Part shown: positions 1 to 64,000 of the stretch, in pieces
Layout: each line of letters opens with the position of its first letter
Position numbering within the stretch: the stretch's first letter is position 1
DNA from: Bilabrum cf. latius
Lineage: Eukaryota
Reading direction: 5' to 3'
Length of the DNA stretch: 64,000 nucleotides
Assembly: GCA_965178125.1 (NCBI GenBank)
Contig: OZ237740.1
Location: forward strand, 1,116,001 to 1,180,000
Notes under the pieces: generated by a model
Told to the model about the DNA's origin: nothing
Databases searched by the model: none
Seen by the model: the letters and a program-made list of their open reading frames with translations, nothing else
Position numbers and translations under genes: made by a program

Positions 1-1707
1 TGTAAGAAGTACGGCCTCCCGAACGAAGTGTCTGCGACGACGCACTGGACGGGTCTTTCAAGCCGGGGGTAGGCCGGCAACTGCAGCGCGTGGGCTCCCT
101 GGTCCGAGCCCAGGATCCACTTCACGTCAAAGTGCTTGCAGCAGGGTGGCTGGCACGATATCGCGGCATCCATCTCGATCGATGCTGCGCACGAGCCGGG
201 TGCTTATGCCGGCCTCCGGCACCACGTGTTTCAAGGGTGTCCGCTCGCTGGAGGCTGGCACCACGCCTCCTCGAACGACTTTGTCCACTGGCAGGACCAA
301 GGCATGGCCGTGACCGAGTGGCCTGAGCCATGGGGAGAGTCGTCACCCTGCAGCGGGTTTGCCGCCCTGTTTCCCAGCTGGCAGCCGGGGCGGCCCAAGA
401 CATAGATTTGCGCGGGGTACCGTCAGTGCTAGAGCAAGCGTGGTATCGGGCCCAACCCATGGAACGTTCCCCTCGAGGTTCGCTGCACAGAAGGAAGCGA
501 GCCCGGGGGGAACACGTCATGGGGCGCGCCGGAATACCTCTTCGACGTCTTCTTCAACCGTGCACTCCCTTACGACCCGGTGCGGCCTTGGGTGGACGAG
601 GATGGGAGATGGTACACGGCTATCTCCATGGATGGCTGCAACGGGACCGCGCGCGGTGATTGCGCAAGCAAAGGGGGCCGCATGGTACTGTGGTCCGCAA
701 CGGTACCCAGGGGTCCAGCAGCTGACTGGGCACTGGTTGGCACGCTCTTCGAGTCGAACAAGACCGTGCTCACTCCCAAGGGGGAGGGGACCGTCCTGGA
801 CAAGGAGTTCGTGACTTCCAACTATTTCGGTGCCGTGCCCGGGGACCCGCTCGGTGGTCGCACTCGTGTGTTTACGAATAATGTGGGCGGGTTGGGCTGC
901 TGCAGTGGCACAACAGGGTATTTTTTGGGCACGCAGTCTGGCCCGGGCGCCCAGCTGCTGGTGAACGAGTCCTCGCCGCACCACATGGGCATGCTGGACT
1001 GGGCCGCGTTCCTACCTGATCAAGCCGCCATCGCGAAAGGAGCCAAGGGAGCAATGGCCCTGCTTGGCACTGGCACCCGCGGCTTCAGCATGGCCAGGAC
1101 GCTGGGCAGCCCCGACGCCGACCAGGTCCTGCACCCTGGGCGACGAGTCGTCGTGGGGTGGCTTGGCATGACGCCGGCCATGCAAAGTCTGCCCAGGGAC
1201 ATTTCGCTCTCGTCGGAAGGAGAGCTGCTGCAGGCATTCGTGCCTGAGCTCGTGACCCTGAGGAAGCAGGCAGAGCCAGATCCAGGACGTGGTGCGGGAG
1301 GAGCACTGGCGCTGTCCGAAGATGATGTGCTCGGCCAGGGCCTGCAGATGGAGCTGGTTGTGGACGTGCTGCCTGCGACAGCTAATGAGACAATGGGAAT
1401 CGTGGTGCAAGAAGACCCGACCAAGGAAGGAGCCAGCGGTGTCAAGATCCTAGTAGATCCCAAGACTGAGCTCCTTCACGTCCTCGACCGTGCCGGACCC
1501 CTGCCCCCGGCAGGCGGCAGTGGGGCTGCGGGATGGCGCCTGCACGTCTTCGTGGACGGCAGCTCGATCGAAGTCATATGCAACAACCGCACTGCCCTTG
1601 CGGTGCAGGTTCCTGCCCGCGAGGGGTGCATGGAGTGCAACCAGGCGCGGCTGCTCAAGGGCACCAAGGTGGCCAGCGCGGTGGCGTGGCCCCTCGATCC
1701 GATCTGA
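1..1707 (+). CDS. Glycoside hydrolase family 32-like (beta-fructofuranosidase-like), 5' end outside the window
   Basis: Frame 1 is open from base 1 to TGA 1705-1707 except for TAG at 70, 403 and 430. Motifs IHF..GWHDIA, WHHASSNDFVHW, PCSG, YDP, SLPRDISL and LHVFVDGSSIEV match the GH32 propeller plus beta-sandwich. Confidence 0.8.
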
Positions 1708-1874
1708 GGGACACCGGTGTGCGTCACTGCCGGGCTGCACAAGCAGCGCATGATTGCTGAATACTGATGATGAAAACTCAAATTGGACAGAACTAGATTG
1801 TGCCTGCAAAGCAAAGGAAGGGCTTACACACATTGTGGACCCGCCACGGAGCAGCTCGGCCTTGCTAGCGTTGC

Positions 1875-4844
1875 TCAGCTTTCCTGCGGGTCCGGCTTAG
1901 CTTCGGTCGCAGCCGCTGGCCCTTGCTGTCTCTGGGCCAGCACGCCTGCCAACCCGCCCGCGCTCGCACGAGCACCCCAAGCCCCGCCAGGCTTCGCGAC
2001 CGGTGCTTGCGCCTACGCCTGCTAGGCACCGGGTGGAGCCAACGATGCTCCGCCGCTAGGCTGCGCCGAGGCCGCTGCTGGCCCGCCCGCGCCAGCTCCC
2101 GATGCGGGCATCGTTGGCTCGGCCGGTTCCGCCAATCGGGTGCCGGGCATGGGCCCTCTGGCCCTGCCCGCGCCCGCGCCCGTGCCTGCTCCTGTCTTGG
2201 CCATGGCTTCCTCCGAAGCGCGCGGTGCGGCCGCCGCCTCCTCGGCAGCCTCCTCTTCCTCCCGGTCCAGCTCGGCTGCGAATGCAGCGGCATCCTCCCT
2301 GCGCCTGGCCTCCTCTTCTTCCTTCTCCACCGCGATGGCAGCGGCCAGGGCCTCCTTCAGCCTCTTCGTGACCGGGTCCTCGGGCCCTCCGACCGCAGCC
2401 GCGATGCCCTCATTGTTCGCCGCGCTCTCCTCGACCTCCGACTCGTCGTCGTCCTCCTCGGGGCCCAGCCCCTCCCCGTCGTCGTCGCGAGGGTACTCGA
2501 CCTCCCCGTCGTCATCCTCCTCCCAAGCAGATGTAGACCCACCCGCCGCGCGGCGGAAGGCCAGCTGCGCGCTGCGGGAGCGGAACACGGATCCCACGCT
2601 GGCATCCGTCACAAGAGAGGTCAGCTCCTCTTCGGGCAGGCAGCGCACGCCCTACCGCACAAAAAATGCCGTCACGTTGTGCACGTCCTTGGCCAGGTAT
2701 TCGTCAGCCTTGGGATGGTTCGTCTCCACCGCCTGCCCCACGTCGATCACCCAGACCCGCCCGTGTCCCCGCGCGTCCCACAGCAGGTTGTACTCTGACA
2801 GATCGGCGTGGACCATGCGGCAGCAGTTGTACATGCCGTGCATGATGGAAACCACCTGCGCGTAGCACCTCCGCCAGTCACGCTGCGATTCGAGAGACGC
2901 TGTCTTCAGCTGAGGGCACGCCTCGCCGGCTTGGCCCACAAAGTCCATCACCAGCACGTGCTGCCGAAGCATGCGGGGGCGCGGGCACGGCAGGCCGGCG
3001 CAGTAGAACCGCACCAGGTTTCGGAACTCCATCTTGGCCCACTCTCGGATGAATTTGTGGGTGTTGTGCCGGTTGAGGCGCGCCCTTCGAAGCCGCTGCT
3101 GGCCGTCGAGGTAGGCACCTCGGTTCGAGAATTCGCTGAGTGACGTGCGGTAGATCTTGATCGCCACCTCGCCGTGCCACTCGGGGGCCCAGTCCTCCGT
3201 GTCCGCGTCGTCTTCGCCCTCCCCGGACCACCGCTGCGAGTCTGCGATCGCGACACCAGAGCCGCCCCCAGCGGAACCTGCTGCGGTCTGGCCTCTCGCA
3301 GCGACGGAGGGGCCCGGCAAAACGGCATCGCCCGCGCCCGCGCGCCGCTGCAGCGCCCGAGTGGCTGGCAGCTCGGGAGGCACGGCCTTCTGCATGGCAT
3401 CCGAGCCCGGCAGTGCCAGCATGGCCTCGATCTGGCGGTCCGCCGCGCCATCGTCGTCCTCAATGCTCGCGCTCGCGGCATCGCCAGAGAGGCTGCTGCC
3501 GCCTGATACGGAGGGCCTGTCTGCAGGTCCCGCGACGCTCACGGCCCCGGGTCCCACCAGAGTCCCGTCTCCCGTGGACCAGACCCCAGGGGCGTCCTCC
3601 CATCCGCTCGCGTGGAACACGGCGGCCTCCTTGCCCGTCTTGATGACGCCGTGCACGCCTGCCAGTGCCCCCGCGTTCACGAGCTTGAACAGCACCAGGC
3701 GCGTGCGATCGTCCAGCACTCCCTCGCGAGTGGCGTGCTGCGACTTCTCCACCCTGCCTGACCGAGACTGCCCCTTGACCGTCTTCTTGTCGAATGCACG
3801 CCGCAGCCCCTGCGTGACGGAGGACCTCAGCCTCAGCTTGCCCCCGGAGGCACCCTTCACCTCCGCGAGGTCCCCCGTGAGATGCCAGTACTTGCGCTCC
3901 AGCTCGTGCACGTTGTGCCTCCCCTGGATCTTCTCGTCGTGCTTGGCCGCGGTCCCCTTGGCCATGTGGTACTCTAGCTCGTCCCTGAGTCTCTCCGCCT
4001 CTGCGCTCTTCCCCTGACTCTCTAGCAGCCGGATGATGGCCTGCGGATTGCCCGATTGCGCGTCTGCGATCAGCTTCTTGGCGGTGCGGTCCGCCGCTGC
4101 CATGGCCTCGGCGTCCGTGCTGGCCTCCACGAAGCCGCTGCGGACGAGCACACGAGCCAACTCACGCCGGCGATCGGCTGCCTCGTCGGCCAGTGCCCGC
4201 TCCCAGTCCTCTGCGGCGTATACCCGACGCCCCGAGTCACCCCCGCTCTCGGGAGCCAGCGGGTCCTTGAATCCGAATTGCATGCCGGCAGGCACCCTGG
4301 CAGCGGGCGCGCGCGACGAGACCAGCCTGACCTTGCCCTAGCCGGTCTGCAGGGCGCGCGCCGCTGCTGCGCTCCCCGGAGGAGGTGCTCGTAGAGGACC
4401 AGCCGCACGCGCAGCGGCCTCCTCCTCCTCCTGCAAAGCTCGCGCCAGCGCCAGGTCGTCCGTATACTGCTGCTGCGCGCCGGACTGTTCGCCATCTACG
4501 GAGGTTGGCGCAGCGTCAGATCCAGACTGCCCCGCTGCGGGCTCATCACGCAGCATTGTTTCCCCTGCTGCATCAGTCTAGGACTGTGGGGGTTCCGGCA
4601 AGTCCTCAAGGCCGGCGTCCAGCGCTGCTTGAAGTCGCAATGCGTACGCCACGTCCGGATCCACGTCTGGCTGTCCTGACATGTTTTTGCCAGTCCCGTC
4701 AGATTGAGAGGGGTGTGTTGCATCGTCAAGTGCAGACGCACGAGCTTCGGCAAGGTGAGCGGCTTGAAGTTCCAGCCTCTCGCGTTCTTCTCTTTCCTCC
4801 TTCTCTAGCTTCGCGGCAAGCAACTAATCTGCAAAGCTTGCCAT
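1875..4844 (-). CDS. RIO-family atypical kinase, RIOK3-like (~989 aa)
   Basis: ATG 4844 to TGA 1875-1877 in one frame, with TAG at 4824, 4578, 4338, 2652, 2022 and 2013. Motifs IKTGKEAAVFHA, VAIKIY, VHADLSEYNLL and IDVGQAV. N-terminal D.ALA..LQ motifs and KHDEKIQGRHN resemble RIOK3. Confidence 0.88.
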
Positions 4845-6532
4845 CGTTTCGATACAAACGCTCAAGCTTCGATCGGCTACTCTCTGATTGCTTCTTTTCT
4901 TGGCCTTACACTCAGCAAATACTGGCCACCAGAGGCGAATTGTGGTCAAGATGGATGTGGAAACTTCGGGCGAACGTAATTCCGGTTTGCACGTCATGAG
5001 AACGCTGCCACTCAGCGCGTTCCTGGAGCGGAACTAGCGGCCAGCAAAACGAATCATCGCTAGTGGCAGCAAGATTTCAATCAAGCAACAACGTTAAGCT
5101 CGCATCGATCAGCTCGTTACCCGGAAAAAGTACGTCTCGTTGCCCGGCAGGTCCGGGACCACGAAGCCGCCCGCTCGCTTGCCGGAACCCGCGGGGGGCA
5201 GCTGGTGCGTGGCCCTAAGACCATCCCAGCCGTGCACCTCCACCTTGGTGGTGCACGCCGGCAGCCTGCCCCCGGGAATCTTGAAGGAGGTCAGCGGCCT
5301 CACCGTGGTCCATGCCTCCAGCGCCTGCCACACGATCGTGAACTGGCACGGCTGCGCCGCGTACAGCCTGTCGCCGGGCAGCCCAGCCCTCGCGGTAAGT
5401 TCTCCATCCATCGATGCGTTCCTCGCGCAGACTGGCGCCTGCGGCATGAAGATGTGCGTGTTAGTGCGCCTGGGCTCATTTACCACCCACTGCTGCTGCA
5501 GCACAGGTGCAGCCGGCGGACCCACCGCGCTGCTCCCTTTGATCTTGTTCCCTGGGCTGTCCTCCAGCTCGGCCCCACCCGCCAGCGGCTGCAAATCCAC
5601 TTTGGTGCATCCGGCCTCTGCCAGCAGACGCGCCGCCGTGTCGCCATCGATCCGTCGACCGAGGCTGTCAGCCCACGCCACAGTACCCGCGCCCTCACCC
5701 TCGCCCTCGCCCTCGCCCTCGCCCTCGCCCTCGCCCTCGGCCCTGGCCCCGGCCCCATGGACCGCACCCATCCCATCGGAAAACCCAGAGCCAGTCAATG
5801 GAGACACCGGCACGGGCTTGGTCATGTTCAAGGCCCTCCAGAACACCTCCCCCTTCATGGACGGTCGGTACGGGGCGTCGCTCATGGCCATCCCAAACTC
5901 GGGGTCCTCGTCAACCGTGTGGAAGAGGTTCCAAGGCATGCTCATGCGAACTGCACTCGTGCAGATTGTGTTCCCTGGCGCACCGCTGAGCACCCCCTGC
6001 CCCACCTGGTCGCTGCACGTGCCGGGTGCCTCGTGCACCACGGTCCACTGGTCCACGATGGCCGTCAGGAGGCCGCGGGAGGCGTACTCGCGGGTCACGT
6101 TGCGCACCTTGAATCCAAATTCAGTGGTGAACAGCTGCAGGGGCACGTCTTCCAGCCCGCACCGGGAGCGCATCTGGTCGAAGCGGTACTGCATGCTGTT
6201 GTCTCTCGTGCCGAACAGGGGCTCGTATTGGACGTCGAACTCCGTGTGCATGTCAATCCCGTTGAGCAGCCCTGCCTTCCACATGTCGGCCACGCCGTGG
6301 CAAAGGCCAAGCATGGTGTAGTTGCCCCCTGCCTTGGCGTTCATGAACCCGCCGGGGTTCACCACACACGATGCCTGCGCGCCGATCTCGCCGCAGCCCA
6401 TCCTGACACCCAGCGCGAACCCCTGCAGGCTGTCGTAGTAGAGCTGTGGGCCTGCGGTTGAGTTCGGTCCGAAGTCGCCGTTGTTGTCAGGTTCGTTGAA
6501 TGCGGTGAACAAACGCACCCCGAAGGCAGGAT

Positions 6533-6556
6533 CCGTCTATCCGGAATCTGTCCACA
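6533..6556 (+). repeat. Left terminal inverted repeat
   Basis: ccgtctatccggaatctgtccaca matches the reverse complement of 9257-9280 at 18 of 24 positions. Confidence 0.85.
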
Positions 6557-6600
6557 CCGGGACATCTGTCCACACATTTCTCTCGGCCCTTCCTGCCCCC

Positions 6601-8964
6601 ATGTCGGGGGCAGCGGCAAGTGGAAGCAGCGAATCTGATAGTAAAACTTCACATCTATCAGAATCTCTGTACTAGCGGCTTAAGGACGATGTTCGTGCCG
6701 TCGGTTTTCTGCTTGCAAAAGGGGACGGCAGGGTCCCGGAGGAAAGCGCCCACACACGCTGGCTGCTAACACCTGTGAAGGTGTGGCAGCTTCACCTATA
6801 CCTTGAAAAACATAAAGCAAGGTTCAGGCCGCGGAAGAAGAAGCAAGCATGGTCACAAGCCGCTGCAATGACCGAGGGCGTCGCATCTGGGAACATCGGG
6901 TACAAGACGGTTGCGGCCGCCTAGAAGGCGTGGCGGCGCGAGATGATGCTACAGGAGCAGCCCTAGAAGCGGAAACTGAAGTCGTGTCTACCTGAGCGCC
7001 TTGAATTAGCGCTGGCGGAGCTAGTTCGGAGCAGAGCGAGGGAAAACATGCCGATGACCGATGACCAGGTGTTCCACTTTGCTACCTGTCTCCGTCGAAC
7101 GTACTTGCCCAAGCGCCTGAGGAAGGGCAGGCGCCCCAACAAAGAGTGGGTAAATGACTACATGAAGCGTAGAGAGCTGCATTCGTTGACTCCGGAGGAC
7201 AAATCCATCGATAGGAGCGCAGCGGAGTCCGCCCACGTCCTGATCAACTGGTTCATCGCCTTCGCTTCCATCCTCGGTATGTCGATTGACAAGTCCACCG
7301 GGAAGGCCATTGGTGAGCTGAAGAAGTATCATCCTAGTATGATTGCCAATGCGGATGAGACTGTCGTTTTAGTCGAATCCCCGCCTGGCTAGAACAAGTT
7401 TCGTGACCTCAAGGTGGTCGTCGACTCGAGCGACGACAGGGCCACCCTTCGCCGTTCGCGGTTCGCCAAGACCAACGTGGCCTACATCCCTTTCGTCACT
7501 GTAGACGGATTGGTAGCTGATGTAGTTATCTTTAAGTATGACGGCAAGGGAACGCACGATGAAGGATTTCGCTTGGAGAACGACCGGTTGAAGTAGATGC
7601 TCAAGGACCTGCCGAAGGAGCCCACCGACGAGCAGGTGCAGAAGGTGCTTGACTGCCAGGCCGTGGCACAGTGGGTGGCTTACCCGAGCCCCACGCAGCT
7701 TCTATTCGTGACAGACGTCCCTGAGGAGTTCAAGGAGGTCGTAACGACCAAGCGCACGAGCCTTGTCGCCACTCCCACGGGGTACAGCAACGCCACCACC
7801 TTCGGCGGGGGGGTGCGCCTGCTGGCCGACCACTTCGATACCGTGCGCACAAAGGAGAAACTAGGCAAGGATGCAAGGGGTCTACTGATCGTAGACGGGC
7901 ATACAACCCACCATACGGCAGCACTGAAGGCGCTGTGTGCGTAGAGGAACATCGACCTGGTCTTCCTCCCCCCCAACACCACCCACTTCATGCAGCCCCT
8001 GGACGTCGCATGCATGGCGTCCTTCAAGCGCGTGTTCGCCGCCGACAAGCCGTACTTTGGCGAGTTTATTGCAAGCCGGTACCGTATTGAGGAGTAGAAG
8101 GCCAAGACCATATCGACGAAGGAGCACTTGAAAGCAGCCGGGCTGGCGAAGAACTACGGGGAGGAGTACATCCTGCCGATGCTGATGTCGGCGTCCAGGC
8201 AGGCGTTCACAGCCAAGAACGCAACCAGTGGGTTCAGGAAGTGCGGCTTGCTTCCACTTGACCCGGTCTCGGTGATGAAGGGGCTCAAGATGAAGTATGA
8301 AGTGATCAAGGCGGCGCTAGCTGGGTTGGTGGAGGAGGGGGGGGAGGGGGCTGCCAGTGGGGCGGGTGCTGACGACCTCGAGCCCGGGGGTGCCATCGCT
8401 CTGGTGTGCATCATGTTGGGGATTGACAAGCCCCCTCCTTTGTGGCGAGATGCGCCAGCGCATGCAACGTGCACCCTTGAGTAGGTTACGGATGCTTTGG
8501 TGAAGTATGGGGAGAGGCTGAATGCGGACCAGGCCCGTGACATGCTTGTGGATCGGCGGCCTGGCATGGCCGGTACTGTTGATATGATCGCCTTGCACAT
8601 CGCCAAGGTGAGAGAGAGTGGTGACAGGGCCGAGCTAGCTGAGAAGGGTACTAGGAAGCCTCGGACAAAGACGCAGCTCTCGCGCAGGCTGGCTGGTGTG
8701 GGAGGGACGGCAGAAGAGGCTCGGGCGGCGACGCTTGAGGCTGCTTCGAACAAGCGGAAGAGGGCGGAGGAGGGGGGAGCTGGGGGGAGGAAGAAGCGGC
8801 CCAAGTCGCCCAAGAAGAAACGTAGGGTGGAGAAAGGCAAGAAGGGTCAAGAACGTGCGGGTGGAGGAGGAGAGCGTGCGAAGGCGGAAGCCATGCCCTC
8901 GGCAGCTCCTGGGGGGCGGACGCGATCACGAAAGAATGTGAAGAAGCCAAGCAGATATAATTAA
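6601..8964 (+). CDS. DDE_1/pogo-type transposase, DD35D, 787 aa
   Basis: One frame from ATG 6601 to TAA 8962-8964, with 8 TAGs (6673, 6922, 6964, 7390, 7594, 7942, 8095, 8482). Triad motifs NADET, LLIVDGHTTH and FLPPNTTHFMQPLDV, plus SGFRKCGLLPLDP and a basic NLS-like tail. Confidence 0.92.
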
Positions 8965-43575: not shown

Positions 43576-45807
<2,232 letters not shown>

Positions 45808-49287: not shown

Positions 49288-49319
49288 TTGGTTGGTTGGT
49301 TGGTTGGTTGGTTGGTTGG
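49288..49319. repeat. (TTGG)n microsatellite between convergent genes
   Basis: About 8 tandem ttgg units. Confidence 0.9.
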
Positions 49320-51497: not shown

Positions 51498-53478
51498 TCA
51501 CTGGTGCTGCATGCTGCGGGCCAAGGCGAGGTCGATGTCAGCCTGCTCCGCGCTCCCAGCCCCCGACGGCGCGACTGCATCTGCCGAGTCCAGCACGTAC
51601 CCACCCGAGGCACCCCCCCCTTCCCCGCGCAAGGCCTTCTTGCCGTGTCTCGACGCCAAGAACCCCCTGCTGGATGCCACCCTCGCCTCGGCCTCCGAGA
51701 CCCGCTCGGCCATATCTGCCGCCGCCACGATCTTCTTCTGAAGCGCGGCCAGCGAGGCGGGGTCGTCGAACGTGGGCATGGGCGCGTCAAAGTTAACGGT
51801 GCCAGTGGCCCGGTCCACCCTCGCGAAGATGCTCCGCTTGGCGCACATGTCGAGGATGACCCGCTCGGCAGCCTGGGGGGACTCCAGGCCCGTCCGCGCG
51901 GCGATATCGGACAGATCCAGCCGGAGGTACGTCCTCGTCAGCTTGCGGATAGACGTGCGCTCCAGCTGGGAAATGGCCAGCTTGACCATCCCCAAGGTCC
52001 CGTCCTCCCGGAACTCGTCCAGGTTGCGCCGCACCACCTCGTCCAGGGGCATGGACCCGTGGCCGCCCCGCCCACCGCGGGGTCCCCCGCCACCACCGGA
52101 CCTGCCGGTTCCCGAGGCGGAATCAGCCCCACTCCCACCCGCACTCGCCCCCGCACCCGCGCCCGCGCCCGCGCCTTTACCGCCCTCCGCGCCCCCCTTG
52201 CCCCCCTCTGCCGACTCGGGGTCCACCAGCGTCGCCTCTCGCGCCTTGCGTGCGATCGCGGTGGCCCCTGCACCCGCCCCGGCCGCAGACCTGTACGCCG
52301 CCGCAAACTGGTAGTACGCCTGGTTGGCCTTCTCGAGGTTGTACGAGACCGGCTTGGACATGAGATCGCTAGGCAGGGTGGGCACGCTGCCCGTCGCGAT
52401 GATGCTGCCCAGCATCCACTTGGCGTGCGCGCCCACGACGAGCTTGGAGAGGCCCCTCCCCGGCAGCTCCATGCACCTCTGGAAGAGCTCCACGGCCTCC
52501 TCCCATCGCTCCAGACCCGCGAGGGCCGTGCCCCCGAAGTAGTGAAACTCGAGGAACTCCAGAGGGGTCAGCCCCGTCCGCTTGGGGTCGATGTCCAGCT
52601 TCGGGTGCTCAGCAAAGGAGGCGGCTAGCTTGAAGTGGGACCGCCCCACGCTCTCCCGGACTGCAGTGCACTGTAGCGGCCACAGGGTGGCAGAGTCGGC
52701 GGGGTGCACCTCGCGGGCGCACCGCAGGATGAGCGGGAACACCTCCCCGCCGCGGTTGCGCTCGCGGAGAGACTTTGCGGCGCACTGGCAGCACGCGTCA
52801 GCTGCGGTAAGATATAAAGAAATTCGGTGGGATGTGCAAGCGCTCGTTGTCGAAGTGTGCAGATAGCGAGCGTCGCCGATCCGGGCGATGATGGGCATCT
52901 GCAACAAAGACTCACTCGCTCCACCCGCCCGCCTCAAATCGCCAACCGGTGCGTCTCGCAGCACACGAAGCAGCAGCTCCAAGATCCACGCTTTATCGCC
53001 CTTGCGCTCCCACCGAGCCACTTCCAGCTTTTCCTTATGCTCTGGCTTCATCTTTGCGGGAGGCTTCAATGCCATCGTTTTCTCGTAGATCGCAGGCCTG
53101 TGATCCAAGTAAACAACTAAACGCGCGAATAGAAATGTGGTTAACTGGGCAGCGAAGGCCGCTCGCGTACCAGGCGCCAAGGGCTCACAAGAAATGCGCC
53201 AGAAGCTCCGCGTGTCTATCTACACGCAAGCGTTCGACCTTGTCGGTCAAATAGAATGGATGATCCGCGATTGCCTTCCTAGTCGATTCGTGTCGAATCA
53301 TTCTGCTAAGTTGCGCAACGTCCTCTGGCTCTGTAACAGAGCAAGCCGCGGCAACGAGCGAATCAATTTGCTCGATGCTCGCCTAAATTCGATCAGTCAC
53401 CTTAACATCGCGGGCTCGAGCAGGCCCATCTACACGAATATCAAGCGTGCGAACTCCTCCCAAAAATGTAGGAAACAT
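51498..53478 (-). CDS. COPS3: COP9 signalosome subunit 3-like PCI protein
   Basis: FLEFHYFGG, FREDGTLGMVK, IRKLTRTYLRLDLSDIA and IFARVD..GTVNF. Intron 53098-53188 and a probable intron 52802-52915. One TAG, TGA stop. Confidence 0.85.
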
Positions 53479-53623
53479 GGTCAGTGCTTATTGTTCGCTC
53501 GAGAACGCATGCCTCGGATCTCACCTGTCGCCGCGCATACCTGCGGAACCGCCGGGCGACTGCTGCGTGGCCCTACTCTTGGCTTGCCTCAAGTACCCTC
53601 AAAAAACCTAAATTGCACGTTTA

Positions 53624-55654
53624 TCAAGTCAAATTAATGTGCTGCAGCAGTAGGCGACCGGGAGACGGCCTACCCCGAGCTGCCGCGCGGCCGAAGCCCC
53701 CCGCCGGGCCGGGCCCAACAGCAGGCGGGGTGGCGCCAGCACCAGCACCAGCTCCAGCACCAGCACCAGCACCAGCACCAGCACCAGCACCAGCGGCGGC
53801 CGATACCCCTCTCCACCCCCCTGCCCCAGCAGGAGGGGCACGCTCGGGAGTGGGGACACCGGGGCGTGGCGGTGGCACCCCCACCGGCGGCCTCACGGTC
53901 GCCAGCGCCGCGTCGATCTGTCCCCGCAGGAAGGGCGGCACCAGCCTCGCGCCCCTGTCGATGAGCACACCCGCCACGGCGTGCTCGCCCTGAGCACGAG
54001 CAACGAACAGAGGGGTGCGCTGTGCGTGGTTCGGCCTGTTCAGCAGACCAGGACACGCGTCCCCCAGCTAGGCCCCCAGCTCCACCCACCCCTTCCTCGC
54101 GCACACGTGGAGAGCGTTGTCCCCCGAGGCAGGATCCCGCGCCGCGGCACCTTCTAGCTCGCCGGCCTGCAGCCAGCCTCTGGCCAGCCACCGCCTCGCC
54201 TGCGACTCGCTGACGTCACTGTGCTGCAGAGCCCGCAAGGCCCACCGGCTGGGGTCACCCCCAAGCGCAGGGCCGGGCCGTCCGGTGCTCTCATCCACCA
54301 CTGTCCAGCTCCCCAGCCCGGGCACGTGATCCTCATCCTCGTCCTCGTCCGCAGGCTGCCCCGCGTGTCCATCCCTGGTGGGTGCCACAGTGGACGTTCC
54401 CCGGCTCGGCGCGGGGTCTTCCTCGGCGGGTCCTGCCGCTTCCAAAGCCCCGGTTGCAACCGCCTGCCCACTCGCTGCACTTGTCACGCCATTCTCACCC
54501 GCTGCACACAGTATCCCAGGTCCTGGCGCCCCACTACTGGCGTACGGAGGGGGGGCCTGGGGCACCTCTCCGGTCTCCTCCATGGCCTCCCTTCCGCCTG
54601 CCTCAGCACTGCCGACTGGTGCAGCAGGTGGCGTGCATGCAGCTTCCTCCTCCAGCCCTCTCCTGCTCGCCTCGTCTGCCTGCTGCTGCAGCGCCACCGC
54701 CACGTCCATGGACTCCTGCGGGCTGGGCGATGCAGGCCCGCCGTAGTCCCGTCCACTGGCAGGCACATCTACGAAAGAGCCAGCTGCCATCAAGTCTTCT
54801 CCAGCACTTGGTAAGGCAGTCGGCCGCCCCTCGTCAACTGCACCTCCGAGCTGTCGGCTCTCGGGACCGGCTGTAGGTGAGGCACCCGCGGGTGTGCCTG
54901 CGCCTGCAAACTCGGCGTCGCCTTCAGGAGAGTGCGTGTTATCGGACATGGTCGGAGCACTGGGCACGCCCTGATACCCGGCTGCGTCGCTAATTTCGTC
55001 TTCCGTGAAAGTTGCACCCTCTGCGACGCCACTGGCAGTGTGGTTCGGAGCTGGGAGCAGGTGCTCTTGTCCGAGCACCGCGGCGTGCGTCTAGCTGGTC
55101 GCCCACTCGCTCTCGGTCCCCCTGTGCCAGTACAAATACCCAGAAGACGGATCGTGGGATAGCACCCAGCCGTTTGGTCCATCAAGAATGGCTCCATGTT
55201 CCTGTTGGCCTGCTAAAGCCAGCGTGCCGTGATCGACCTCGCCAATGGCGGCAGAACGGCGCGACCACGCGTGCGAGATTCCCTAGTTCGCTTCGCAAAT
55301 CTTGTGTAAGCAAGCGACCAGCATGCCTGGCAAGCACGTGTTGGACAGAGATGATGGAGAGCACTACCATATAGTCACGAGGTCCTGGGCAGTGCCAATC
55401 TCGTCCTCGTCCCGCAGCGTTGAGGCCCATTCCAAAATTGCTTCTTCGTCGGTAAACTTTGATGGAAGCAAGCTCGCTGCAAGCAAAATCGCCACATGAA
55501 CGGGATCATTAGCTTCTAGACTTGGTAATGCCTCCATTCCTGCTCGGCAACACGTTTCTCGCTGCGATATCGATAATGCCGGGTACTTGCTCAGGTGCTC
55601 GCCACACACGAATAGCTCGGACTGCGTGCTTTGCAACAGACAGTGCCGCAGCAT
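53624..55654 (-). CDS. WW-like plus ankyrin-repeat protein (start uncertain)
   Basis: Frame joined through 4 TAGs. WW-like PNGWVLSHDPSSGYLYW..SEW and ankyrin-like SGDNALHVCARKG and RTPLFVA..LIDRGA. TGA 53624-53626. Confidence 0.68.
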
Positions 55655-56004
55655 CAATTCAACTGCCCGTTGGAGTTGATTTGATACGCTGAGGGCGCGC
55701 AGAAAGGGCGCATTCTCACCAGACGAAGTGCAGAGAGCGGTCCCTCAACTCCAATTATCTTCTTCAAGTTGCCCTAGATACAAGTTCCTGAATGCTAAAC
55801 TCAGTCACTGCGCCATTTCATTACAATTGACTTCACGAATCAAGACGTGACAACAGTATACTGCCGTATGTTTTGGATGTGCGCATCGAGTGGCGTCGTC
55901 GTCACCGCTTGTTCCGGTGGTTCTGGCTTTGCTGCGGCGAGCTGGCCGCTGTGCTAGCACGCAGGGCACTGCCTCCAGTTGCTGCCTCTCGAGCACGGCT
56001 GCAA

Positions 56005-58280
56005 TCAGCCGCTTCCGACCCCTCTCTACTCCCCTCCACTCCCATCTCCACCGGACACGGACCCAGACGTCCTGCCACTCCTTCGGCCGTGCAGCACCTG
56101 GTCCAGCGAGACCCCCCCCTTGTCCCCCACCAAGTGCGAAAAGTCGGGCTTCGGTCTGCCGAGCAGGTGCCTGCTAGACTTGGGTGTCACGTCCATGTAG
56201 ATGCGCCCGACTTCCATGTTATCCACCGCGCGCTGCAGGTGGGCAGGCAGAGGCCTACCACCACCGTGCCCATCAGCATAGGTCTACCCCTGCTGCTGGA
56301 CCCCCTGCTGCTAGTAGCCACCCGGCCCTGGCCCTGCATTACCCCCCTCGGGCCCCTGACCCCCAGCCCCCGCTTCACCCCCCGCATCGTATCCCCCCAC
56401 GTGATCCCCACTCCCTCTCCCACCACCTCCCCCCATCAGCGCCGCAGCCCCCGCCTCGCCTATCTGCTGCGCCACCTCCCTGCGAGCCTAGTGGAACTCA
56501 AGAGCCCGCGCCCCGTACCCCTGCCCCACTGCTTCCTGCCTCCTCCTCTCCGCCGCCACCTTCTCCCTCTCTAGTCGCATCTTCTCCGCCCGCACCTGGG
56601 AACGGGCAAACAGCCTGTCGAAGGCGGTGTCCGTGTCGCCGCCGGCCTCCGCCCCGCTGCTCACTCCCCCGCTCCCGCGACGCCCGCCCTTCCGACCCCT
56701 ACCCTTTTCCTTCTTACCACGGGCCCCGCCCCCCACTGTTCCCCGGCTCCGCTTGCCCTCCGTGACCGGATCCCCGGCCCGCGCTCCGTATCCCCCGAAG
56801 TTGGCGTGATATCCCCCAGCCGGCATGCCCTGCTGCTGCTGCTGCTGCGAACCCATCGCACTGCGGAACTGGTTCTGCTCGTCCGCGGCGGCGCCCGGCT
56901 GCCAATATGCCTGTGGTGGAACTACCCCGCTCCCCTGCGCGGCGCCCGGCGGAACCGGATTCCGGTGACCTCTCGCACTCAGCGAGCCCGGGGGCATGCC
57001 GTACGCGTCGCCCTGGCCCAACGAGAGCCCATGACCATGACCATGACCACGAGCATGCCCGCTCCCATACCCCGCATTGCCGCCCGGCGGACCCGGCAGT
57101 GAACGAGCCAACGGATCTCTATCGTCACCCCCAGCACCCCTGCGGGACCCCCCCACGCGCGCCGATAGCGGCACCTTCCCCCCGATGCCCCCACCCGGGG
57201 GGAGCCGACCCGTCGCCGAGGCCCCTCCCAGGCCAAGCCCGGGCACCCGAGGCCGCGGGAACCGCCGTCCTCCTGCTCCTGCTCCTGCTCCTCCCGTGCC
57301 CTGCCCTGGGCCTTGGGGTTGAGCGAGCACGGCCCCGGCAGCCGCCAGCCGCTTGCGGTTGGGTCCCAGCCCCAGCTCCCTGAACTGCTGCTTGGCTGTT
57401 TCGTGCGCCCTGTGGAGCCGCTCCACATCATTCTTCAGCTGCAGATTCTCCTGCTTCATCCGCACGTAGTCACCGAACGCCGAGGAACCTTCCTTGAGCC
57501 CCTCTTGGAGCCGCTGCCGCAGATCGTCGAGAGCGGCGGCTAGCTGGGCAAGCTCTGTCTTCTGCTGCCCGATCTGCGCGCGGGCTTCCCGCAGGGCCGT
57601 GGCCTGGGTTGCGTTCTTGTCTCTCAGCGCGATTATTTCCAGCTCGGCCACGCGCAGCTGCTCCCTGCCTCGCTTCAGCTCGGACTCCATGTCGTTGTGC
57701 TTGGCGTGCCACCCCGCAGCCTCCGCGCGGGCCGCGCGGGCAGCCGCCTCTGCTCGTTTCTAGTGACTCGCTGCGTTCGCCGTCGATGAGCGCTCGCGCC
57801 GGAGATCTGCCTCCAGGCTCTCTCGCTCTTCCCTTCGCTCGGCATGCTCCCGCTCAAGCTTCTCGCGGAGATCCTCCAGCTCAAACGTGCTTGCACCGCC
57901 CTGTCCCTCGCCCTGGCCACCACCCCCTTTTGCTCTGCTGGCTAGCTCCTCTCGCAGTTGGAACGCCTCGGCGCGCGATTCGTCCCGCTACTTGCTCACC
58001 TGCGCAACAGCAACCCACCAGCGCTAGAGCGAACGTGCGGGGCATAACACATAAACCTGGGCTTGCACTACACACTTTTCCTTACCTTAGAAAGCTATTC
58101 TTGCAGATCAGCGACCCTGGCATTGCTAGTAGTCCCCCCCGACCCCTCGCTCAGCCCTGCTGCCTCTCTAAGAGCTGCCTCAGATCTCAGGGCAACTTCA
58201 AGACGCTCAAGGCAACGTCGATGCCGCTTTTTTAACAAGGAGAGCTCCTTTGCTACCAGCTGCTACCCATCCTGAGCCAT
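56005..58280 (-). CDS. Coiled-coil, Gly/Gln-rich hypothetical protein
   Basis: ATG 58280, intron 58000-58085 (GTAAG..CGCAG), 8 TAGs, TGA 56005-56007. Long E/R/L/Q-rich heptad segments. Confidence 0.72.
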
Positions 58281-58969
58281 TGGTACAACGATTCCAGAGA
58301 TATTCGTTGCGATAAAGTTGCTCCGAACGGATCGTCCCGCCGCCGAACGAATCCAGCATGTCGATTGCCGAAGGTTCACTGCCGCGGTCGCACGACGCCG
58401 TGACGACGGCCTGTTGGTGGTCGCACGGCACCCTTGGACCAGACTATCGCATGGGGTCCCTGAGGTTGGAGTGGTCAGTCCCAAGTTTGGGTGGTGCCAT
58501 TCGCAAGCCAGGCTTGCGTAGTGAGGTGACATGCGCCATGCCTAGCAGCTACAGGCTGCAGCAGATCGAAATAGTGAAGGCTTGCTCATAGGCCGTGTGT
58601 CACAGCCATTTGGGACTAAGATTGGCGTTATCATGGCAAGGTGCATAGATGCACGTGCTGATACAGAGGATACCAAGAGTGCAGGCTCCCATGCCTGCCT
58701 AGCAGCCGGTGCGCTGCCATCACCCAATCCGATCCTGGTCGAGGCCTCCAGCCCAACAGCAGCGCCGAGTGTCCTCCCGCCTATGCGGAGAGGATCGTGA
58801 GAGCCCTTGGACATGGATGCTCTACACTTGTGTCGCTGCATGATCGCCATGATTGGCGTTTTGGCCTCGTCGGGCCACGCAAGTGAGATCGCACAGGTGC
58901 CGCGGCGCCATCGTCATCGCTGTCAACCGGTGTCTTGCCGCCCCCGAACAACTCGTATCACGAAACGGG

Positions 58970-60303
58970 ATGCTATCGGCAAGTTCTGACAAGCATTTCA
59001 GAGAATGGATTGGACAGAATCCCAGCAGTGTTGCACTATTCTCTGCACCCTGGTGCAAGGCCTGCAAGAGGGCAAAACCAGAGGTGGCCCAAACTTTGCA
59101 ACAGCAATCTGTGCCTTCCATTGAGGTAGATGCTGACACCATGGAGGAAATTACCGAGGAGCACAAAGTGACAAAACTGCCCACTGTGCTAGTATTCAAG
59201 AATGGAGCACCGGTGGGCAGAGCTTCGGGCCCGAACGCTTCGGATCTGATTGCCATTGTCGTCTCCTGCGGGTTGCTCGAAAATATCGAGAAATCTGCGG
59301 CAGATAGCGATGCGCCGCCCGCCAAACGTGCACGCGTAGATGGAAAAGAGCATTCTCAGGCTGTCCCCATCCAGGGCGCTGCGAGTGGCGCTGGGGCCGA
59401 CGGAGTTGCAGCAGTCAGTTGTTCCAACGGGCAGGCGCACGTTGGGAGCAAGCGCAGCGAACCTGATGCCTCCAGCCCACCGGTTCCCACTTTGACTGAT
59501 AAGATCATACCGGATGGATTCGAAGGCGTGGTAAAGACGGACTGGACTCCGTCGGAGGCCTCCTTGTTTGTGAAGGCAACTGAGTTGCAGGTTGGGGCAC
59601 CGGTAAGTACAATTGGACACAAGCTGGACAAGTCGCATCAAGATATTGTTGGAAATGCATTTGCATCTAGCCCAGGGGCGCTTCCAAGCGACGAACTTGA
59701 GAGCATGCTGCGGTACAGAATCCCAAACCTGACGGACGACGGCACTTGTGGGGTCGGCCTGCAGGCGCAGCCATTCGATTTGGGCGCCGAGATCCTGGGC
59801 CTGTCTCCAGGCACTATACTGCCGCCTACTGACCCGAGGATAATCCGTCTGTGGCGCCTGCGCCAGATCGTCCAGGCGCTCGCTCGGGCCACGGGTGCCG
59901 AATGGGTGGGACTGTACCGCAAGGTGGACCGGCAGCAGGCGCAGGAGCAGGAGAGCGAGGCCGCCGCCGCGAAGCGAACCGCGGCAGAGGCCCGCGCGAG
60001 AGCGGGCCGCGGCCCCGCCGGCGCAGACAAGCCCACTGCTATCGGGGGCCACGAGGACGCCCCCGTGGTGCTGGTCAAGGAGGCCTACGTGGGGTCTGCC
60101 AGCCGCCCCTACTTCCCGCTGACCGAGGCATTCGCTGCCAAGAGCAACAACAGCACCGTGGCCATGACGAAGAAGACCATGGTGTACCACCACGTAGATG
60201 CAGTGCACGACGGCGCGGGGAAGGGCGAGGAGGCCAACGGCGAGGCCACGGGGGCAGCCAGCGGGCAACACGAAGAAACCCCTTCCAGCAAGGCAGCCTC
60301 CTT

Positions 60304-60337
<34 letters not shown>

Positions 60338-60604
60338 CCTGCTCCCTCTTCTTCTTCGTCTGCTACCGCTGCTGCGGACGGCCGGTCAGGTGCCAGTCCG
60401 TACTACGTGTGCGACACGCGCGTGCAGTTCGAGCTCTGCGCGCCCATCCTGGACAGCCGCACGGGGGAGGTGCTCGGCATCCTCGACCTAGAGGCGTGGA
60501 GGCCCAGGCACCTCGCGCGGGCCGGGGTGGCACTGGCCCTGCAGGTGTGCTAGCGGTTAGGAGAGATGGGCCCTGCTTTCTCGGGTGAGGCGGGCTCGGT
60601 GTGA
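58970..60604 (+). CDS. Thioredoxin domain fused to an fRMsr/MsrC-like GAF domain
   Basis: FSAPWCKACK..LPTVLVFKNG, then EWVGLY..LVKEAYVG..SNNSTVAM..YYVCD..ELCAPI..VLGILDLEA. TAG 60551, TGA 60602-60604. Confidence 0.78.
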
Positions 60605-60755
60605 CAGCGGGTCCGGCTTGAACAGATGGATGGATTTTTTGCGTGTTTGCGGCAAAGTGATCGCAACAATGCCCCCATGCGTTGACGATCGTTTTGACAC
60701 TATATCTGCCATTCCGGTCTGTTCTTTACAATTAAAACATCTTTCCTACACTTCC

Positions 60756-63700
60756 ATGGATGTTGACTTGACGGATGCCGCACTTGGCCGTGAAGAGAAG
60801 CACATCGCAGGACAGAGAGCAGTCAGCCCCCCACCAACAGCTAGCGGCAACTACAATGCCCAAAAGGACAGCCATGGCGCAGCGACTGGAGCCAACACTG
60901 GGTATGAAAGTGCATCTACGCAACCGCAAACTTTAGGGAGCGAAGGGGCCGTCGGAAGGGGCTCGACCAATGATAGTCCTACCAGTAGCCTGCGGGACGC
61001 AGGTATGGACCCGGTCGAAGCAGCGGAATCCAGCTCATCAAGCAGTCAGCAAGACAGGGCTAGTGGTAGAATAGCAAGTGTGCGGTAGCCTCCCCTTCCA
61101 GACCACCAAGTCGGATTCTCCTCTCCTGCAACTGCCTCGGCAACCCAGCAAGCGCAAGACGCTCTCTCCGAGTATGCCCAGGATTCCCACGCATGGATCG
61201 AGTTGCAAAGCCCGGAGGGGTGGGCCTACTACGAAAATCAATCCACTGGCGAGACCAAGTGGGCAGGCGAAGGCGATTGGGAGCGGCTCTCGACCGAGGA
61301 GGGCCACCCGTATTGGTTCAACGCAACGACTGCGGTCTCGGTCTGGGACGACCCTGACGAGATCGCCGCGGGACCCGTTTCGCTGCAACAAATGCACGGA
61401 ATGGTCACAGGGGCACAAAGTGCCGGCGACGAGGCAGAGCAGCCGGGCGCCGGAGTGCTCGGCCCCGCGGGAAGCACGGAACAGGCGCCCCCGCCGATCG
61501 CCCCTGGTCATCATCGCGCCACAGAGCAGCACGACCCGGAGCGATTGCCATCAGACGCCCAGCCGCCGACTTTGCCCTCCGCCAGGGATCCCCCGCTGCC
61601 GCCGCAGTCTCCCTTCGGGCTGGCATCTGCTGCATCCGCGGCCAGCTCCGGGATGCAGTCCCTGAGGACCCCGGTTGCAACCCCCCTGCCCGACTCCCTT
61701 GCCTACCACGAGCACGACCAGATGAGCCCAATGCCCCGGCGCTCGCTCGCTGCGGCGCTTGATGCCGGCTCCACCCCCGTGGGAGGGCGGGGGGGAGCAT
61801 CTTACGCCCACACCCACCCTCAAGCCCAAGCGGTGGGCGGAAGGGTGGGGTCTCGGTCCGCCGCCCCGCTGCAGCGCACGGGATCTGGGATCAACCCCCG
61901 GACTCCCCTCGACACCGCGCAGGCGCGTTCTCGCGGACCCGCTGTTCCCCACACGACCAAGGTCAGGGCAAGAGGCAGGGACACTCACTCGCAGCCCAAG
62001 TCTAGGAGTGGTCGCAAGAGGAGAGAGCGCGCCCTCTCGGCGGACATGGGGGCCTACGAGGCGGCGAGGGCGTAGGGGCTGCTGCACGGCGAGGAGCTGC
62101 AGGTGGGACCCGCGGGGCTGTACGCCGAGGACGAGGGGGGGGTGGGTGGCGGTCGCGGGGCCAGGCGAGACAGGCGTAGGAGGAGGCACCGCCGGGGTGG
62201 CAGCGGGGGGGTTAGCGACAGGGGCAGGGCCAGGGGTATTGGATCTCGTGATGAACACTATGTGCGCTCGCTCGCTGGAGGTAGCCTGGGTTCCATGGAT
62301 GGGCTGCAGGGACAGGGGCAGGGGTTGGGGTTGGGACGCATTGGCGGGTTGCATGGCGGTGTAGATCATCGGCACGGCGTGAAATAGGGGGGTTTCGTGG
62401 ATAACGACGACGACGAGGAGGAGGAGGACGGTTCAGGGTCGGTCCGATCCCGGCTCTCCTTCCGGGACGATCGCACGAGGGAGGGGGGCTCGAGGCGGGG
62501 GCAGCTGATGCTGGACGAGCATGCGGGTGAGGGCAGGGGGCGGTGGGGGGCGCGGAGGACTCGATCCCAGCGCGCGGGGGAGGGCACCGACCGGTGGTCC
62601 CCCGTGCAGCACAGAGGAGGTTTCTTCGAGGGGGGTAGGCGAGGCGGCGAGTTGGGAGGGGCTCGGTTGGGGCTGGGGCGAGGGGGTCAGTTCGACGAGT
62701 ACGGTGACCTCGATGGCAGCCCAGGCGGCGGGTCGCTTGGACGAGCCGGCGATCGGTACGAGGCCGGGCCAGGCAGTGCCAACGGGCGCCGCCGAGGGAG
62801 GGCGATGACTCGCGAGGAGCGGGCTAGGGCCTCGCTGGAGGAGGAAGCAGCCATCCACAGAGCTGCAGCGAGGCACGCGCGGGCTGCTGCCGAGGCCATG
62901 GATCGGCGGGCCATGGAACACGCCCGGCTTCTCCTCGCGGGGCAGCTGGGTATGGGCGGCAGCATGGGTATGGGTATGGGCATGGGAGGGTTCGGCGCCG
63001 CAGGCAGCCAGGCCGCTGCTGCCGCAGCCGCGGCCGCTGCAGCCGCTGTGACGGCCCGCGGCGGGGGAGCGGGGTCACAGCACGCGGCAATGGCGGCCGC
63101 GGCGGCGGCAGCTGCGGCTGCAGCCAGTCCACGCCCCGGTGCAGGTATGGGCATGGGCGGGGGCATGGGCGGGGGCCTGCTGGGTGGCCCTGCGGCAGAC
63201 CCACGCATGCTGCGAGGTGATAGGGGCGGGGGTGGGGGCGTGGGCGCGCGGGAGCAAGAGGGCATGACGTCTCTGCGCAAAGGGGGTCGATCGAGGACCA
63301 GGAGTCGCGGGATGGGGCGGTCGGCCAGAGGCAGGAACAAGCGCAGGGGCATGGACAGGGGCATGGACAGGAGCATGGACAGTGGCAGGGGCAGGGGCAG
63401 GGGCAAGGCGGCGGCCACGTCAGGGAGCTCGAGCGAAGGCGGCCAGGGGCAGGGGCTGCGAGCGGGGGACAAGCAGTCCAGGAGGGATCGAGCGAGCCAT
63501 GGCCAGGGCAGGGGCCGGGGCCGGGGCCGGGGTCGCCGTGATTTCGACTCCGAGTCCGACAGCGAGGAGAGCAGCGATGACAGCGAGCTGGAGGAGTACG
63601 CGGAGGAGCTGCTGCAGGACGCGGGCAAGGGTCCTGCGGCGAGGCTGTTGGAGGCACTGTCTGGTGGGGTAAACACTCTCTGGTCCTCGGTGCAGGGGGC

Positions 63701-64000
63701 CTGCGCCCGGCCGAAAGGGGGTGCCCTGCCGCGGACGCAGGCCGAGGCAGAGGCGGCAGAGGAAGCGGCTCGCGCGGAGGGTGGCAGCATCGCGGGATAG
63801 GGCCCGTCCGGGGCGGGCGCCCACCGCGTGGTGCAGGGGGTGAGGGAGGCCGTCGGGGCAGACAACACCGTGATGGTGCTGGGGAACAGCGGCAGCGGCA
63901 GGGGGGGGGGGGGTGCTCAGGAATCGGGAACCGGTGGCAAGGGCGGGGACGGGTTCGCACCGCAGAGCCGGGCGGCCAAGGGATAGGAAGGAGAGGAGGA
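60756..64000 (+). CDS. Tandem WW-domain, Gly/Arg-rich protein, 3' end outside the window
   Basis: Frame from ATG 60756 is broken only by TAG (61086, 62073, 62385, 63798, 63984). WW motifs WIEL.SPEGWAYYEN.STGETKW and WERL.TEEGHPYWFN..SVWDDP. Confidence 0.78.

Follow-up and report, generated by a model that had tools for sequence, protein, structure and literature searches.

When stop codons of nuclear genomes are reassigned, UAG and UAA almost always change meaning together. Peritrich ciliates and Blastocrithidia nonstop read both codons (UAR) as glutamate. McGowan et al. 2024 (PMC11687900) list UAR glutamine codes (table 6 type) in many ciliates, hexamitid diplomonads, ulvophyceans, Streblomastix and Amoeboaphelidium, and UAG-only codes in the rhizarian exLh (leucine), Iotanema (glutamine) and Scotinosphaera (serine), together with the ciliate PL0344, in which UAG is glutamate and UAA lysine, phyllopharyngeans (leucine, glutamine) and Protocruzia tuzeti (glutamine); none of the UAG-only nuclear cases they name is a stramenopile. 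In Panek et al. 2017 (PMC5304391) a UAG-only sense codon is said to require a tRNA with anticodon CUA, tRNA(CUA), and a change in the N domain of eRF1, and the eRF1 of Iotanema is reported to carry T32G in the GTS motif, with weaker recognition of a G in the third position. Here we describe a stretch of 64,000 nucleotides (contig OZ237740.1, positions 1,116,001 to 1,180,000, of assembly GCA_965178125.1; hereafter the window) with 63% GC, in which nearly all gene frames contain the triplet TAG. There is good probability that cytoplasmic ribosomes of this organism read UAG as sense, most likely as glutamine, with UGA, the main stop, and UAA still terminating translation; the glutamine-for-UAG-only assignment corresponds to NCBI table 15.

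The nearest parallel in form is Iotanema spirale (Fornicata), in which UAG alone is reassigned, probably to glutamine, and UAA and UGA are stops (PMC5304391). The predicted mechanism is also the same, tRNA(CUA) with an altered eRF1. Iotanema differs in being an unrelated anaerobic metamonad with UAA as the primary stop, whereas the window is GC-rich and has TGA as its main stop (15 of 18 closed frames). With the UAG-only ciliates of PMC11687900 the window shares the decoupling of UAG from UAA and glutamine as one of the outcomes, but its DHX15 gene groups with stramenopiles, its spliceosomal introns are about 90–115 nt long and its GC content is high. The same source has exLh and Scotinosphaera reassigning UAG alone in a non-ciliate nucleus, as here, but to amino acids that score poorly in the window (leucine -22.6 and serine -9.9 bits, versus +6.5 for glutamine, in the pooled columns described below). 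UAR glutamine codes likewise turn a stop into glutamine, presumably through a mutated tRNA-Gln, but UAA is also sense in them, whereas in the window TAA passes the flank test (below) in 0 of 327 cases and three frames end with it. In common with the UAR glutamate codes, some TAGs of the window align with acidic residues, but others fall at invariant glutamine sites and UAA is not reassigned. Outside the window TAA may occasionally serve as a sense codon, the sample of TAAs in one stretch of GC-rich DNA being small.

Reading frames, gene ends and transcripts

Under the standard code the longest stop-to-stop frame in the window has 1563 codons, and 13 frames reach at least 500 codons. Reading TAG as sense gives 25 frames of that length, headed by frames of 3012, 2900, 1288, 1277, 1072, 1052 and 1007 codons; releasing TAA as a control leaves 13 frames and the same 1563-codon maximum. 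Release of TGA also lengthens frames, with 43 reaching at least 500 codons, because TGA is the commonest stop triplet in DNA of 63% GC (1357 TGA, 800 TAG and 328 TAA, counting both strands). It is thus not a clean control, and a flank test was therefore used in its place. For every stop triplet in the six frames, the 40 codons on either side were scored with a codon log-odds model trained on Pfam-supported stop-free stretches, and at least 5 bits were required of each flank. Both sides are coding-like at 30 of 798 TAGs, compared with none of the 327 TAAs and one of the 1355 TGAs (Fisher p = 2.5e-14). The sole passing TGA lies antisense to the gene for COP9 signalosome subunit 3 (CSN3), and three of the 30 passing TAGs are likewise antisense to known genes. 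The remaining 27 lie in the frames of RIO1, the transposase, MON2, taspase, phosphomannose isomerase (PMI), the pentatricopeptide-repeat (PPR) protein, TBCA, DHX15, UNC-93, the WW-domain gene and two genes without a family assignment (53624–55744 and 56005–58086; Table 1). The whole window, being GC-rich, abounds in long open frames on the antisense strand, and lists of its open reading frames are inflated by them.

In-frame TAGs number 91 in 19 frames, or 99 if 24 frames are counted. Both totals are upper bounds, as part of the TAGs lie in 5′ leaders (two in UNC-93, one upstream of the DHX15 start) or possibly in introns. Homologue alignments bracket 17 TAGs on both sides. The codon-bias score of a single TAG is too weak for counting, and even the homology-proven TAGs in the MON2 N-terminus score negative. 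At least one TAG is present in every gene frame except that of the ubiquitin-domain gene. A stop-to-stop frame of 3012 codons contains the MON2-like gene, and the probability that this many random codons include no TAA or TGA is about 5e-18. A preliminary description of this DNA, made from the sequence alone, had counted about 90 internal TAGs, found one gene free of them and no internal TAA or TGA in any gene, and singled out a MON2 frame with 13 TAGs. The single TAG-free gene, the MON2 frame and the scarcity of internal TAA and TGA (none and one antisense case, respectively, in the flank test) all reappear here; the figure of about 90 agrees with our totals, though only as an upper bound.

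Eighteen frames are closed, 15 by TGA and three by TAA (the transposase, MON2 and DHX15), and one further frame is open. UGA is retained as a stop and is the main one. UAA, too, still acts as a stop and not as a sense codon: none of the TAAs survives the flank test, and release of TAA brings no gain in frames, in a sample that is small, since TAA is rare in GC-rich DNA, and drawn from one window. The DHX15 TAA is placed about 30 residues past the conserved C-terminal motif, as in homologues. Among the genes whose C-terminus can be recognised, none ends at TAG; PMI, TBCA, DHX15, CSN3, COQ6, p24 and UNC-93 all run on to TGA or TAA, and homologue alignments extend beyond the last TAG in PMI, UNC-93 and TBCA (by 46 residues in the last). 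In the thioredoxin-GAF (Trx-GAF) gene, the 56005–58086 gene and RIO1 the last TAG stands 7–50 codons before TGA, in unconserved sequence, where it may occasionally be read as a stop.

Contigs from four public runs (X1, X5, X6 and X10) were mapped onto positions 42650–62600. Those of X1 are long and identical to the window, and X1 is probably the source sample and hence non-independent. X5 and X6 come from two other studies, and their contigs are gene-sized and without any difference from the window. In CSN3 they skip 52802–52915 (114 nt) and 53097–53187 (91 nt), stretches that end CT..AC, corresponding to GT..AG on the minus strand; introns of about 90 nt had been proposed in the preliminary description. 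Because the contigs are gene-sized and spliced, we read X5 and X6 as transcript-derived; the run records carry no RNA label, and X5 is automatically guessed to be DNA. Twelve coding TAGs are unchanged in these contigs: one in DHX15, two each in COQ6, UNC-93 and the WW gene, one in CSN3 and four in the 53624–55744 gene. As the contigs (rather than raw reads) are identical to the window across the 12 TAGs and have their introns spliced out, editing and sequence error are excluded at those sites. The mature mRNA therefore keeps its UAGs, with no removal by editing or splicing, and the comparison of RNA with DNA that the preliminary description had proposed thus reveals no editing.

Two low-complexity repeats coding for serine, glutamate and aspartate (60293–60346 and 56829–56849) draw very many contigs from all four runs, with summed depths of 557–5835 and many chimeric-looking joints. 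In the Trx-GAF and WW genes these repeats interrupt the transcript contigs.

Four lines of evidence thus support a code with UAG as sense and UAA and UGA as stops: the frame statistics, homology, the transcript-like contigs, and a relative, described next, that has the trait as well. That UAG is a sense codon in this genome, as first proposed from the uninterrupted frames, we regard as almost certain.

The organism and its relatives

Matches in a search with DHX15 reached 73% identity at most; Cafeteria roenbergensis and 'Bicosoecida sp. CB-2014' gave the best full-length matches that carry a name. In a maximum-likelihood tree of 26 rows (LG+C20), with taxa picked by similarity and with alveolates, rhizarians, oomycetes and labyrinthulids left out, the window is sister to a clade of Cafeteria and two unnamed proteins (support 99/97). 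Both are nested in a nine-row group of heterotrophic-stramenopile-like sequences that includes 'Bicosoecida sp.' (99/99) and stands apart from ochrophytes, green plants, a glaucophyte and Balamuthia. On this gene tree the organism would be a heterotrophic stramenopile near Cafeteria-type bicosoecids, a placement that we favour without regarding it as firm. It fits the earlier suspicion that the organism is not a ciliate and that its code arose independently, insofar as one gene can speak to this. An Rfam scan at the gathering threshold gave 0 matches in the window, and thus no rRNA.

A second organism with the trait is represented by a metagenome contig, L001 (5790 nt, 54% GC), which carries the best of 80 PMI loci found in a scan of metagenome contigs. 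Its PMI is 60–64% identical to that of the window over 443–472 residues, and the head-to-head order of taspase and PMI is common to the two. The L001 PMI has three in-frame TAGs, one of them at the position of a TAG codon of the window (25015), and ends with TGA. TAG occurs inside the PMI match in none of the other 79 metagenome loci. The 5′ end of L001 contains a tandem repeat, and downstream lies a Rab-like GTPase frame that is not at that place in the window.

A much closer relative, organism D, is present in run X10. Its DHX15 differs from that of the window at 95 of 2201 bases (~4.3%), it shares the CSN3 intron 52802–52915 (the first CSN3 joint), and its TBCA TAG shows no change among the differences listed (the first 40 of 617). 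Small in-frame insertions and deletions distinguish it in CSN3 and the WW gene.

The amino acid read at UAG and its decoding

Homologous positions point most often to glutamine. The PMI TAG at 23860 lies in the motif LSI-TAG-AHPDK, where the Candida (1pmi, 5nw7) and Salmonella (3h1m) structures have glutamine, and all 80 metagenome loci have a glutamine codon at this position (49 CAA, 31 CAG); this glutamine is reportedly one of the zinc ligands (Cleasby et al. 1996). For the MON2 N-terminus, 150 homologues were collected by a full HMMER search, and in the column of TAG 10860 (column 98) glutamine is found in 117 of 149, followed by His 9, Lys 7, Arg 5, Leu 3, Glu 2 and Ala 1. The first UNC-93 TAG corresponds to glutamine in 2/2 homologues and the second to serine in 1/1; word-indexed protein searches gave two matches for UNC-93 and three for the transposase. 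Other TAGs occupy variable columns, namely PMI 23749, MON2 columns 47 and 49, and RIO1, whose TAG (2652–2654) stands at the end of the RIO domain against glycine in RIOK3 and histidine in RIOK1. Several alignments contribute no columns: PDB searches returned 0 matches for UNC-93 and 0 for the MON2 N-terminus, the PDB alignments of the GH32-like frame and of taspase do not reach their TAGs, taspase exon 1 gave spurious LRR-kinase matches only, and full-length MON2 against 64 long homologues yields no alignable column for its other eight TAGs.

A pooled, Codetta-like emission score over 12 columns is highest for glutamine (6.5 bits of log-odds), followed by glutamate (1.8), aspartate (0.7) and histidine (-3.1), and it understates PMI, which entered with two sequences only. 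Leucine, serine and tyrosine are rejected as meanings of UAG by this score. Calibration against ordinary codons points the same way: glutamine-dominated columns hold 19 of 50 glutamine codons of the window, 2 of 90 glutamate codons and 2 of the 6 well-sampled TAGs. The probability of at least two in six is 0.73 if TAG behaves as glutamine and 0.007 if it behaves as glutamate. Context also appears to favour an uncharged residue. The first 56 residues of COQ6, a typical mitochondrial presequence with nine arginines or lysines and no aspartate or glutamate, include two TAGs; the second codon of the p24 signal peptide is a TAG; the last membrane helix of UNC-93 holds one; and the glutamine-rich motif of the 56005–58086 gene would likewise suit such a residue. 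Given that UAG is sense, these comparisons make glutamine probable; glutamate would be improbable, and a dual or other reading about equally so. Glutamine, proposed at the outset, thus stands as the best single assignment on the PMI, MON2 and UNC-93 columns, but is less secure than had been assumed on account of the acidic columns.

Several results weigh against this assignment and the wider interpretation. TBCA structures have aspartate at the TAG in 3/3 cases, MON2 TAG 10878 (column 104) corresponds to aspartate in 74 of 148, the TAG in the DDE_1 domain of the transposase corresponds to glutamate in 3/3 distant homologues, and the DHX15 TAG aligns with leucine, isoleucine or valine in 100 of 116 homologues. 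(Two Cafeteria-clade DHX15 proteins have aspartate or glutamate in that column.) Aspartate or glutamate appears at ~6 of the ~16 informative TAG positions, an excess over the ordinary glutamine codons of the window, only 3 of 50 of which fall in glutamate- or aspartate-dominated columns. The informative columns number only about 16, and several comprise 1–3 homologues. Four of the window taspase TAGs face Gln, Gln, Glu and Glu in L001, the glutamate pair being the adverse part, and the TAGs of L001 face Glu 3, Gln 1 and TAG 1 in the window, plus two in a badly aligned stretch. No tRNA genes were found by ARAGORN in the window or L001, or by the Rfam scan of the window (0 matches at the gathering threshold); eRF1 is not encoded in the window, so that the decoding machinery is inferred; and the taxon is placed by one gene tree with similarity-chosen taxa.

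All window TAGs compared with L001 give Gln 4, Glu 2 and TAG 1, and both directions pooled give a 5:5 split of glutamine to glutamate. This split is odd under either pure reading, as ordinary glutamine and glutamate codons exchange only once among 57 window Gln/Glu positions in the same alignments; small numbers and the variability of these columns are the only explanation offered. Two of the TAG columns of the L001 PMI are indeed mixed among the other loci, with Lys 24, Arg 24, Gln 19 and Glu 4 of 79 in one and Lys 34, Thr 11, Glu 8 and Gln 3 of 79 in the other. The excess of TAG at acidic columns may be due to the small sample, to a recent origin of TAG codons at tolerant sites, or to mixed decoding.

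The alternative that survives best, though improbable, is that UAG is sense but specifies glutamate, read by a tRNA-Glu(CUA), comparable with UAR in peritrichs and Blastocrithidia and with UAG in one oligohymenophorean ciliate. It accommodates the transposase (Glu 3/3), TBCA (Asp 3/3) and the MON2 column that is 50% aspartate, as well as the five TAGs paired with glutamate in the L001 comparison, and glutamate ranks second in the pooled score. It is at odds with the glutamine of all 80 PMI loci and 2/2 UNC-93 homologues, with a MON2 column 98 in which glutamate makes up only 2 of 149, with the rarity of window glutamate codons in glutamine-dominated columns (2/90), and with two TAGs in an otherwise acid-free COQ6 presequence.

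Less probable again is a dual role for UAG, either as both glutamine and glutamate, through two CUA tRNAs or mischarging, or as sense inside genes and a stop at some gene ends. Context-dependent use of a codon as stop and sense has precedents in Condylostoma and in the UAA of Blastocrithidia; we know of no nuclear stop codon that is read as two amino acids. The division into glutamine-type and acidic-type columns fits neither pure glutamine nor pure glutamate well, and the codon might be read, now or recently, as both, but the numbers are small and exchanges among Gln, Glu and Asp are common at surface positions. Use of UAG as an occasional stop would suit the late TAGs of Trx-GAF, RIO1 and the 56005–58086 gene, 7–50 codons before TGA, but has against it the seven genes with recognisable C-termini named above, none of which ends at TAG.

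We think it very improbable that UAG is formally a stop, with efficient read-through by near-cognate tRNAs and a weakened eRF1 in place of a dedicated tRNA. Near-cognate read-through of UAG inserts mainly glutamine, tyrosine and lysine, a mixture that could blur the column signal, and the failure to find a tRNA(CUA) in the window or L001 would be in keeping with it; but MON2 with 13 internal UAGs could not reach a useful yield, UAG is absent from recognisable gene ends, and a trait shared at ~60% PMI identity argues for a fixed, efficient system. An unchanged code, in which pseudogene mutations, errors of sequencing or assembly, or removal from the mRNA by editing or splicing would account for the TAGs, is next to impossible and, to the extent that contigs can show it, already refuted: nothing was found in its favour, and only C-to-T errors at CAG could in principle mimic the pattern, but the in-frame triplet is always TAG and never TAA or TGA, housekeeping genes are affected (which, with the identical contigs, bears out the initial rejection of pseudogenes), the X1, X5 and X6 contigs are identical at TAG codons with spliced contigs keeping them, and L001, from a different organism, has in-frame TAGs of its own.

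On the preferred reading, with UAG as glutamine, the codon would be decoded by a tRNA whose CUA anticodon pairs with UAG and not UAA. The simplest source of such a tRNA would be a duplicated tRNA-Gln(CUG) with one anticodon change, and a glutaminyl-tRNA synthetase that accepts it would also be required. The N domain of eRF1 would be altered such that the G of UAG is no longer recognised and UAA and UGA still are.

Gene content of the window and consequences of the code

The genes of the window and the transcript-like contigs that cover their TAGs are collected in Table 1.

Table 1. Gene frames of the window and transcript-like contigs, with coordinates in the window.
Feature	Coordinates	Strand	Remarks
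GH32-like frame, cut by window start	1–1707	+	3 in-frame TAGs; TGA end; weak Pfam Glyco_hydro_32C match
RIO1-type kinase frame	1875–5093	-	7 in-frame TAGs; TGA end; RIO1 E = 1.7e-54
Pogo-like DDE_1 transposase	6868–8964	+	ATG 6868; 7 in-frame TAGs; TAA end; intact
MON2-like gene, single frame of ~2970 codons	10566–19487	+	13 in-frame TAGs; no TAA or TGA inside; TAA end; DCB domain
Taspase/asparaginase_2-like gene	19597–23282 (at least 2 frames: 19597–22755, 22734–23282)	-	human taspase E = 1.5e-7
Phosphomannose isomerase (PMI), last exon	23584–25179	+	coding TAGs 23749, 23860, 25015; TGA end
Pentatricopeptide-repeat (PPR) protein, 2900-codon frame	26455–35157	-	3 in-frame TAGs; TGA end; PPR families, E down to 6.5e-55
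p24/emp24 cargo receptor, several exons	36351–37346	-	EMP24_GP25L E = 8.5e-29; TAG 37275–37277 is signal-peptide codon 2
Ubiquitin-domain gene	37570–39123	-	sole gene frame without TAG
Low-complexity protein frame, no Pfam match	39593–42616	+	8 in-frame TAGs; coding score weak, TAGs only candidate sense codons
Tubulin cofactor A (TBCA)	42761–43285	-	TAG 43070–43072 mid-domain; TBCA E = 1.7e-23
DHX15/Prp43 helicase	43576–45807	-	TAG 45757–45759 (codon 17); TAA stop 43576–43578
RING-finger protein	46334–47278	+	TAG 47192, after the RING domain
COQ6 monooxygenase	47460–49238	+	TAGs 47490 and 47547 in 56-residue N-terminal presequence; TGA end
UNC-93-like membrane protein	49524–51206	-	coding TAGs 51096–51098 and 49698–49700; 2 more in 5′ leader
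COP9 signalosome subunit 3 (CSN3)	51498–53478	-	introns 52802–52915 and 53097–53187; exon-1 TAG 53383–53385; TGA end
Protein without Pfam match, ankyrin-like stretch (by eye)	53624–55744	-	4 in-frame TAGs
Coiled-coil, Gln/Gly-rich protein frame	56005–58086	-	7 in-frame TAGs, 2 within Gln-rich motif
Thioredoxin-GAF (Trx-GAF) protein	58853–60604	+	TAG 60551, 17 codons ahead of TGA; stop and sense not distinguished there
WW-domain protein frame, runs off window	60168–63998	+	8 in-frame TAGs
X5 contig, DHX15	43620–45814		0 differences
X5 contig, COQ6	47448–49113		0 differences; begins 12 nt before ATG
X5 contig, UNC-93	49331–51321		0 differences
X5 contig, 53624–55744 gene	53805–55561		all four TAGs; 0 differences
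X6 contig, WW gene	60721–62126		TAGs 61086 and 62073; 0 differences

The transposase has strongly coding flanks at six of its seven TAGs in the flank test, and the element therefore appears to have been resident for some time under the altered code of its host; no second copy or obvious terminal repeats were found in the window. Upstream of the transposase there is a long open frame, and facing it on the minus strand is a frame of 560 codons (5109–6791) with two TAGs. Pfam gives no match for this second frame, but part of it resembles a secreted enzyme, and it could thus be a genuine gene. The taspase frames contain up to 15 TAGs, many of them probably within intron or low-complexity sequence. 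The identity of COQ6 is also confirmed by a protein-atlas search.

The PPR frame carries its repeats at the two ends, on either side of a long middle part that is acidic and of low complexity. Its three TAGs amount to about one per 970 codons, versus 13 in the 3012-codon MON2 frame, and its GC content at third codon positions is 0.81, versus 0.69 in MON2; TAG density may fall with codon bias. Hexamer and 24-mer microsatellites at 40648–40807, 24685–24818 and 53736–53794 encode (Ala-Gly)n and (Gly-Ala-Gly-Ala-Gly-Glu)n runs inside the 39593–42616 gene, PMI and the 53624–55744 gene, respectively, and the PMI of L001 has a Gly-rich insert at the same place as that of the window.

For annotation the consequence is that standard-code pipelines will cut short or fragment almost all proteins of this organism, as well as those of related organisms in metagenomes and in contaminant bins from cultures, so that translation with TAG as sense is needed. 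The data suggest a culturable, transcribed organism with public DNA and RNA runs, and the divergence of organism D is ideal for a synonymous-substitution test of the meaning of TAG. With its 63% GC and TGA-dominated gene ends, compared with the AT-rich ciliates, the genome is also a useful test of codon-capture versus ambiguous-intermediate scenarios.

The code itself is of a known kind and the lineage, apparently a clade, is probably new; a literature search that lacked most subscription journals returned no report of nuclear stop-codon reassignment in stramenopiles or bicosoecids. We give even chances to the proposition that this is the first nuclear genetic-code change in stramenopiles, an old trait of a clade of bicosoecid-related heterotrophic flagellates in which UAG is sense and UAA and UGA are stops. 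Such a clade would take in the organism of the window, organism D at ~4% divergence and the organism of L001, and the trait would be so old that relatives at ~60% PMI identity have it in common and a transposon living in the genome has been shaped by it. Each independent split of UAG from UAA shows that decoding of the two codons by eRF1 and tRNA is separable, as Panek et al. 2017 and McGowan et al. 2024 indicate, and a stramenopile case, if true, would add a new supergroup.

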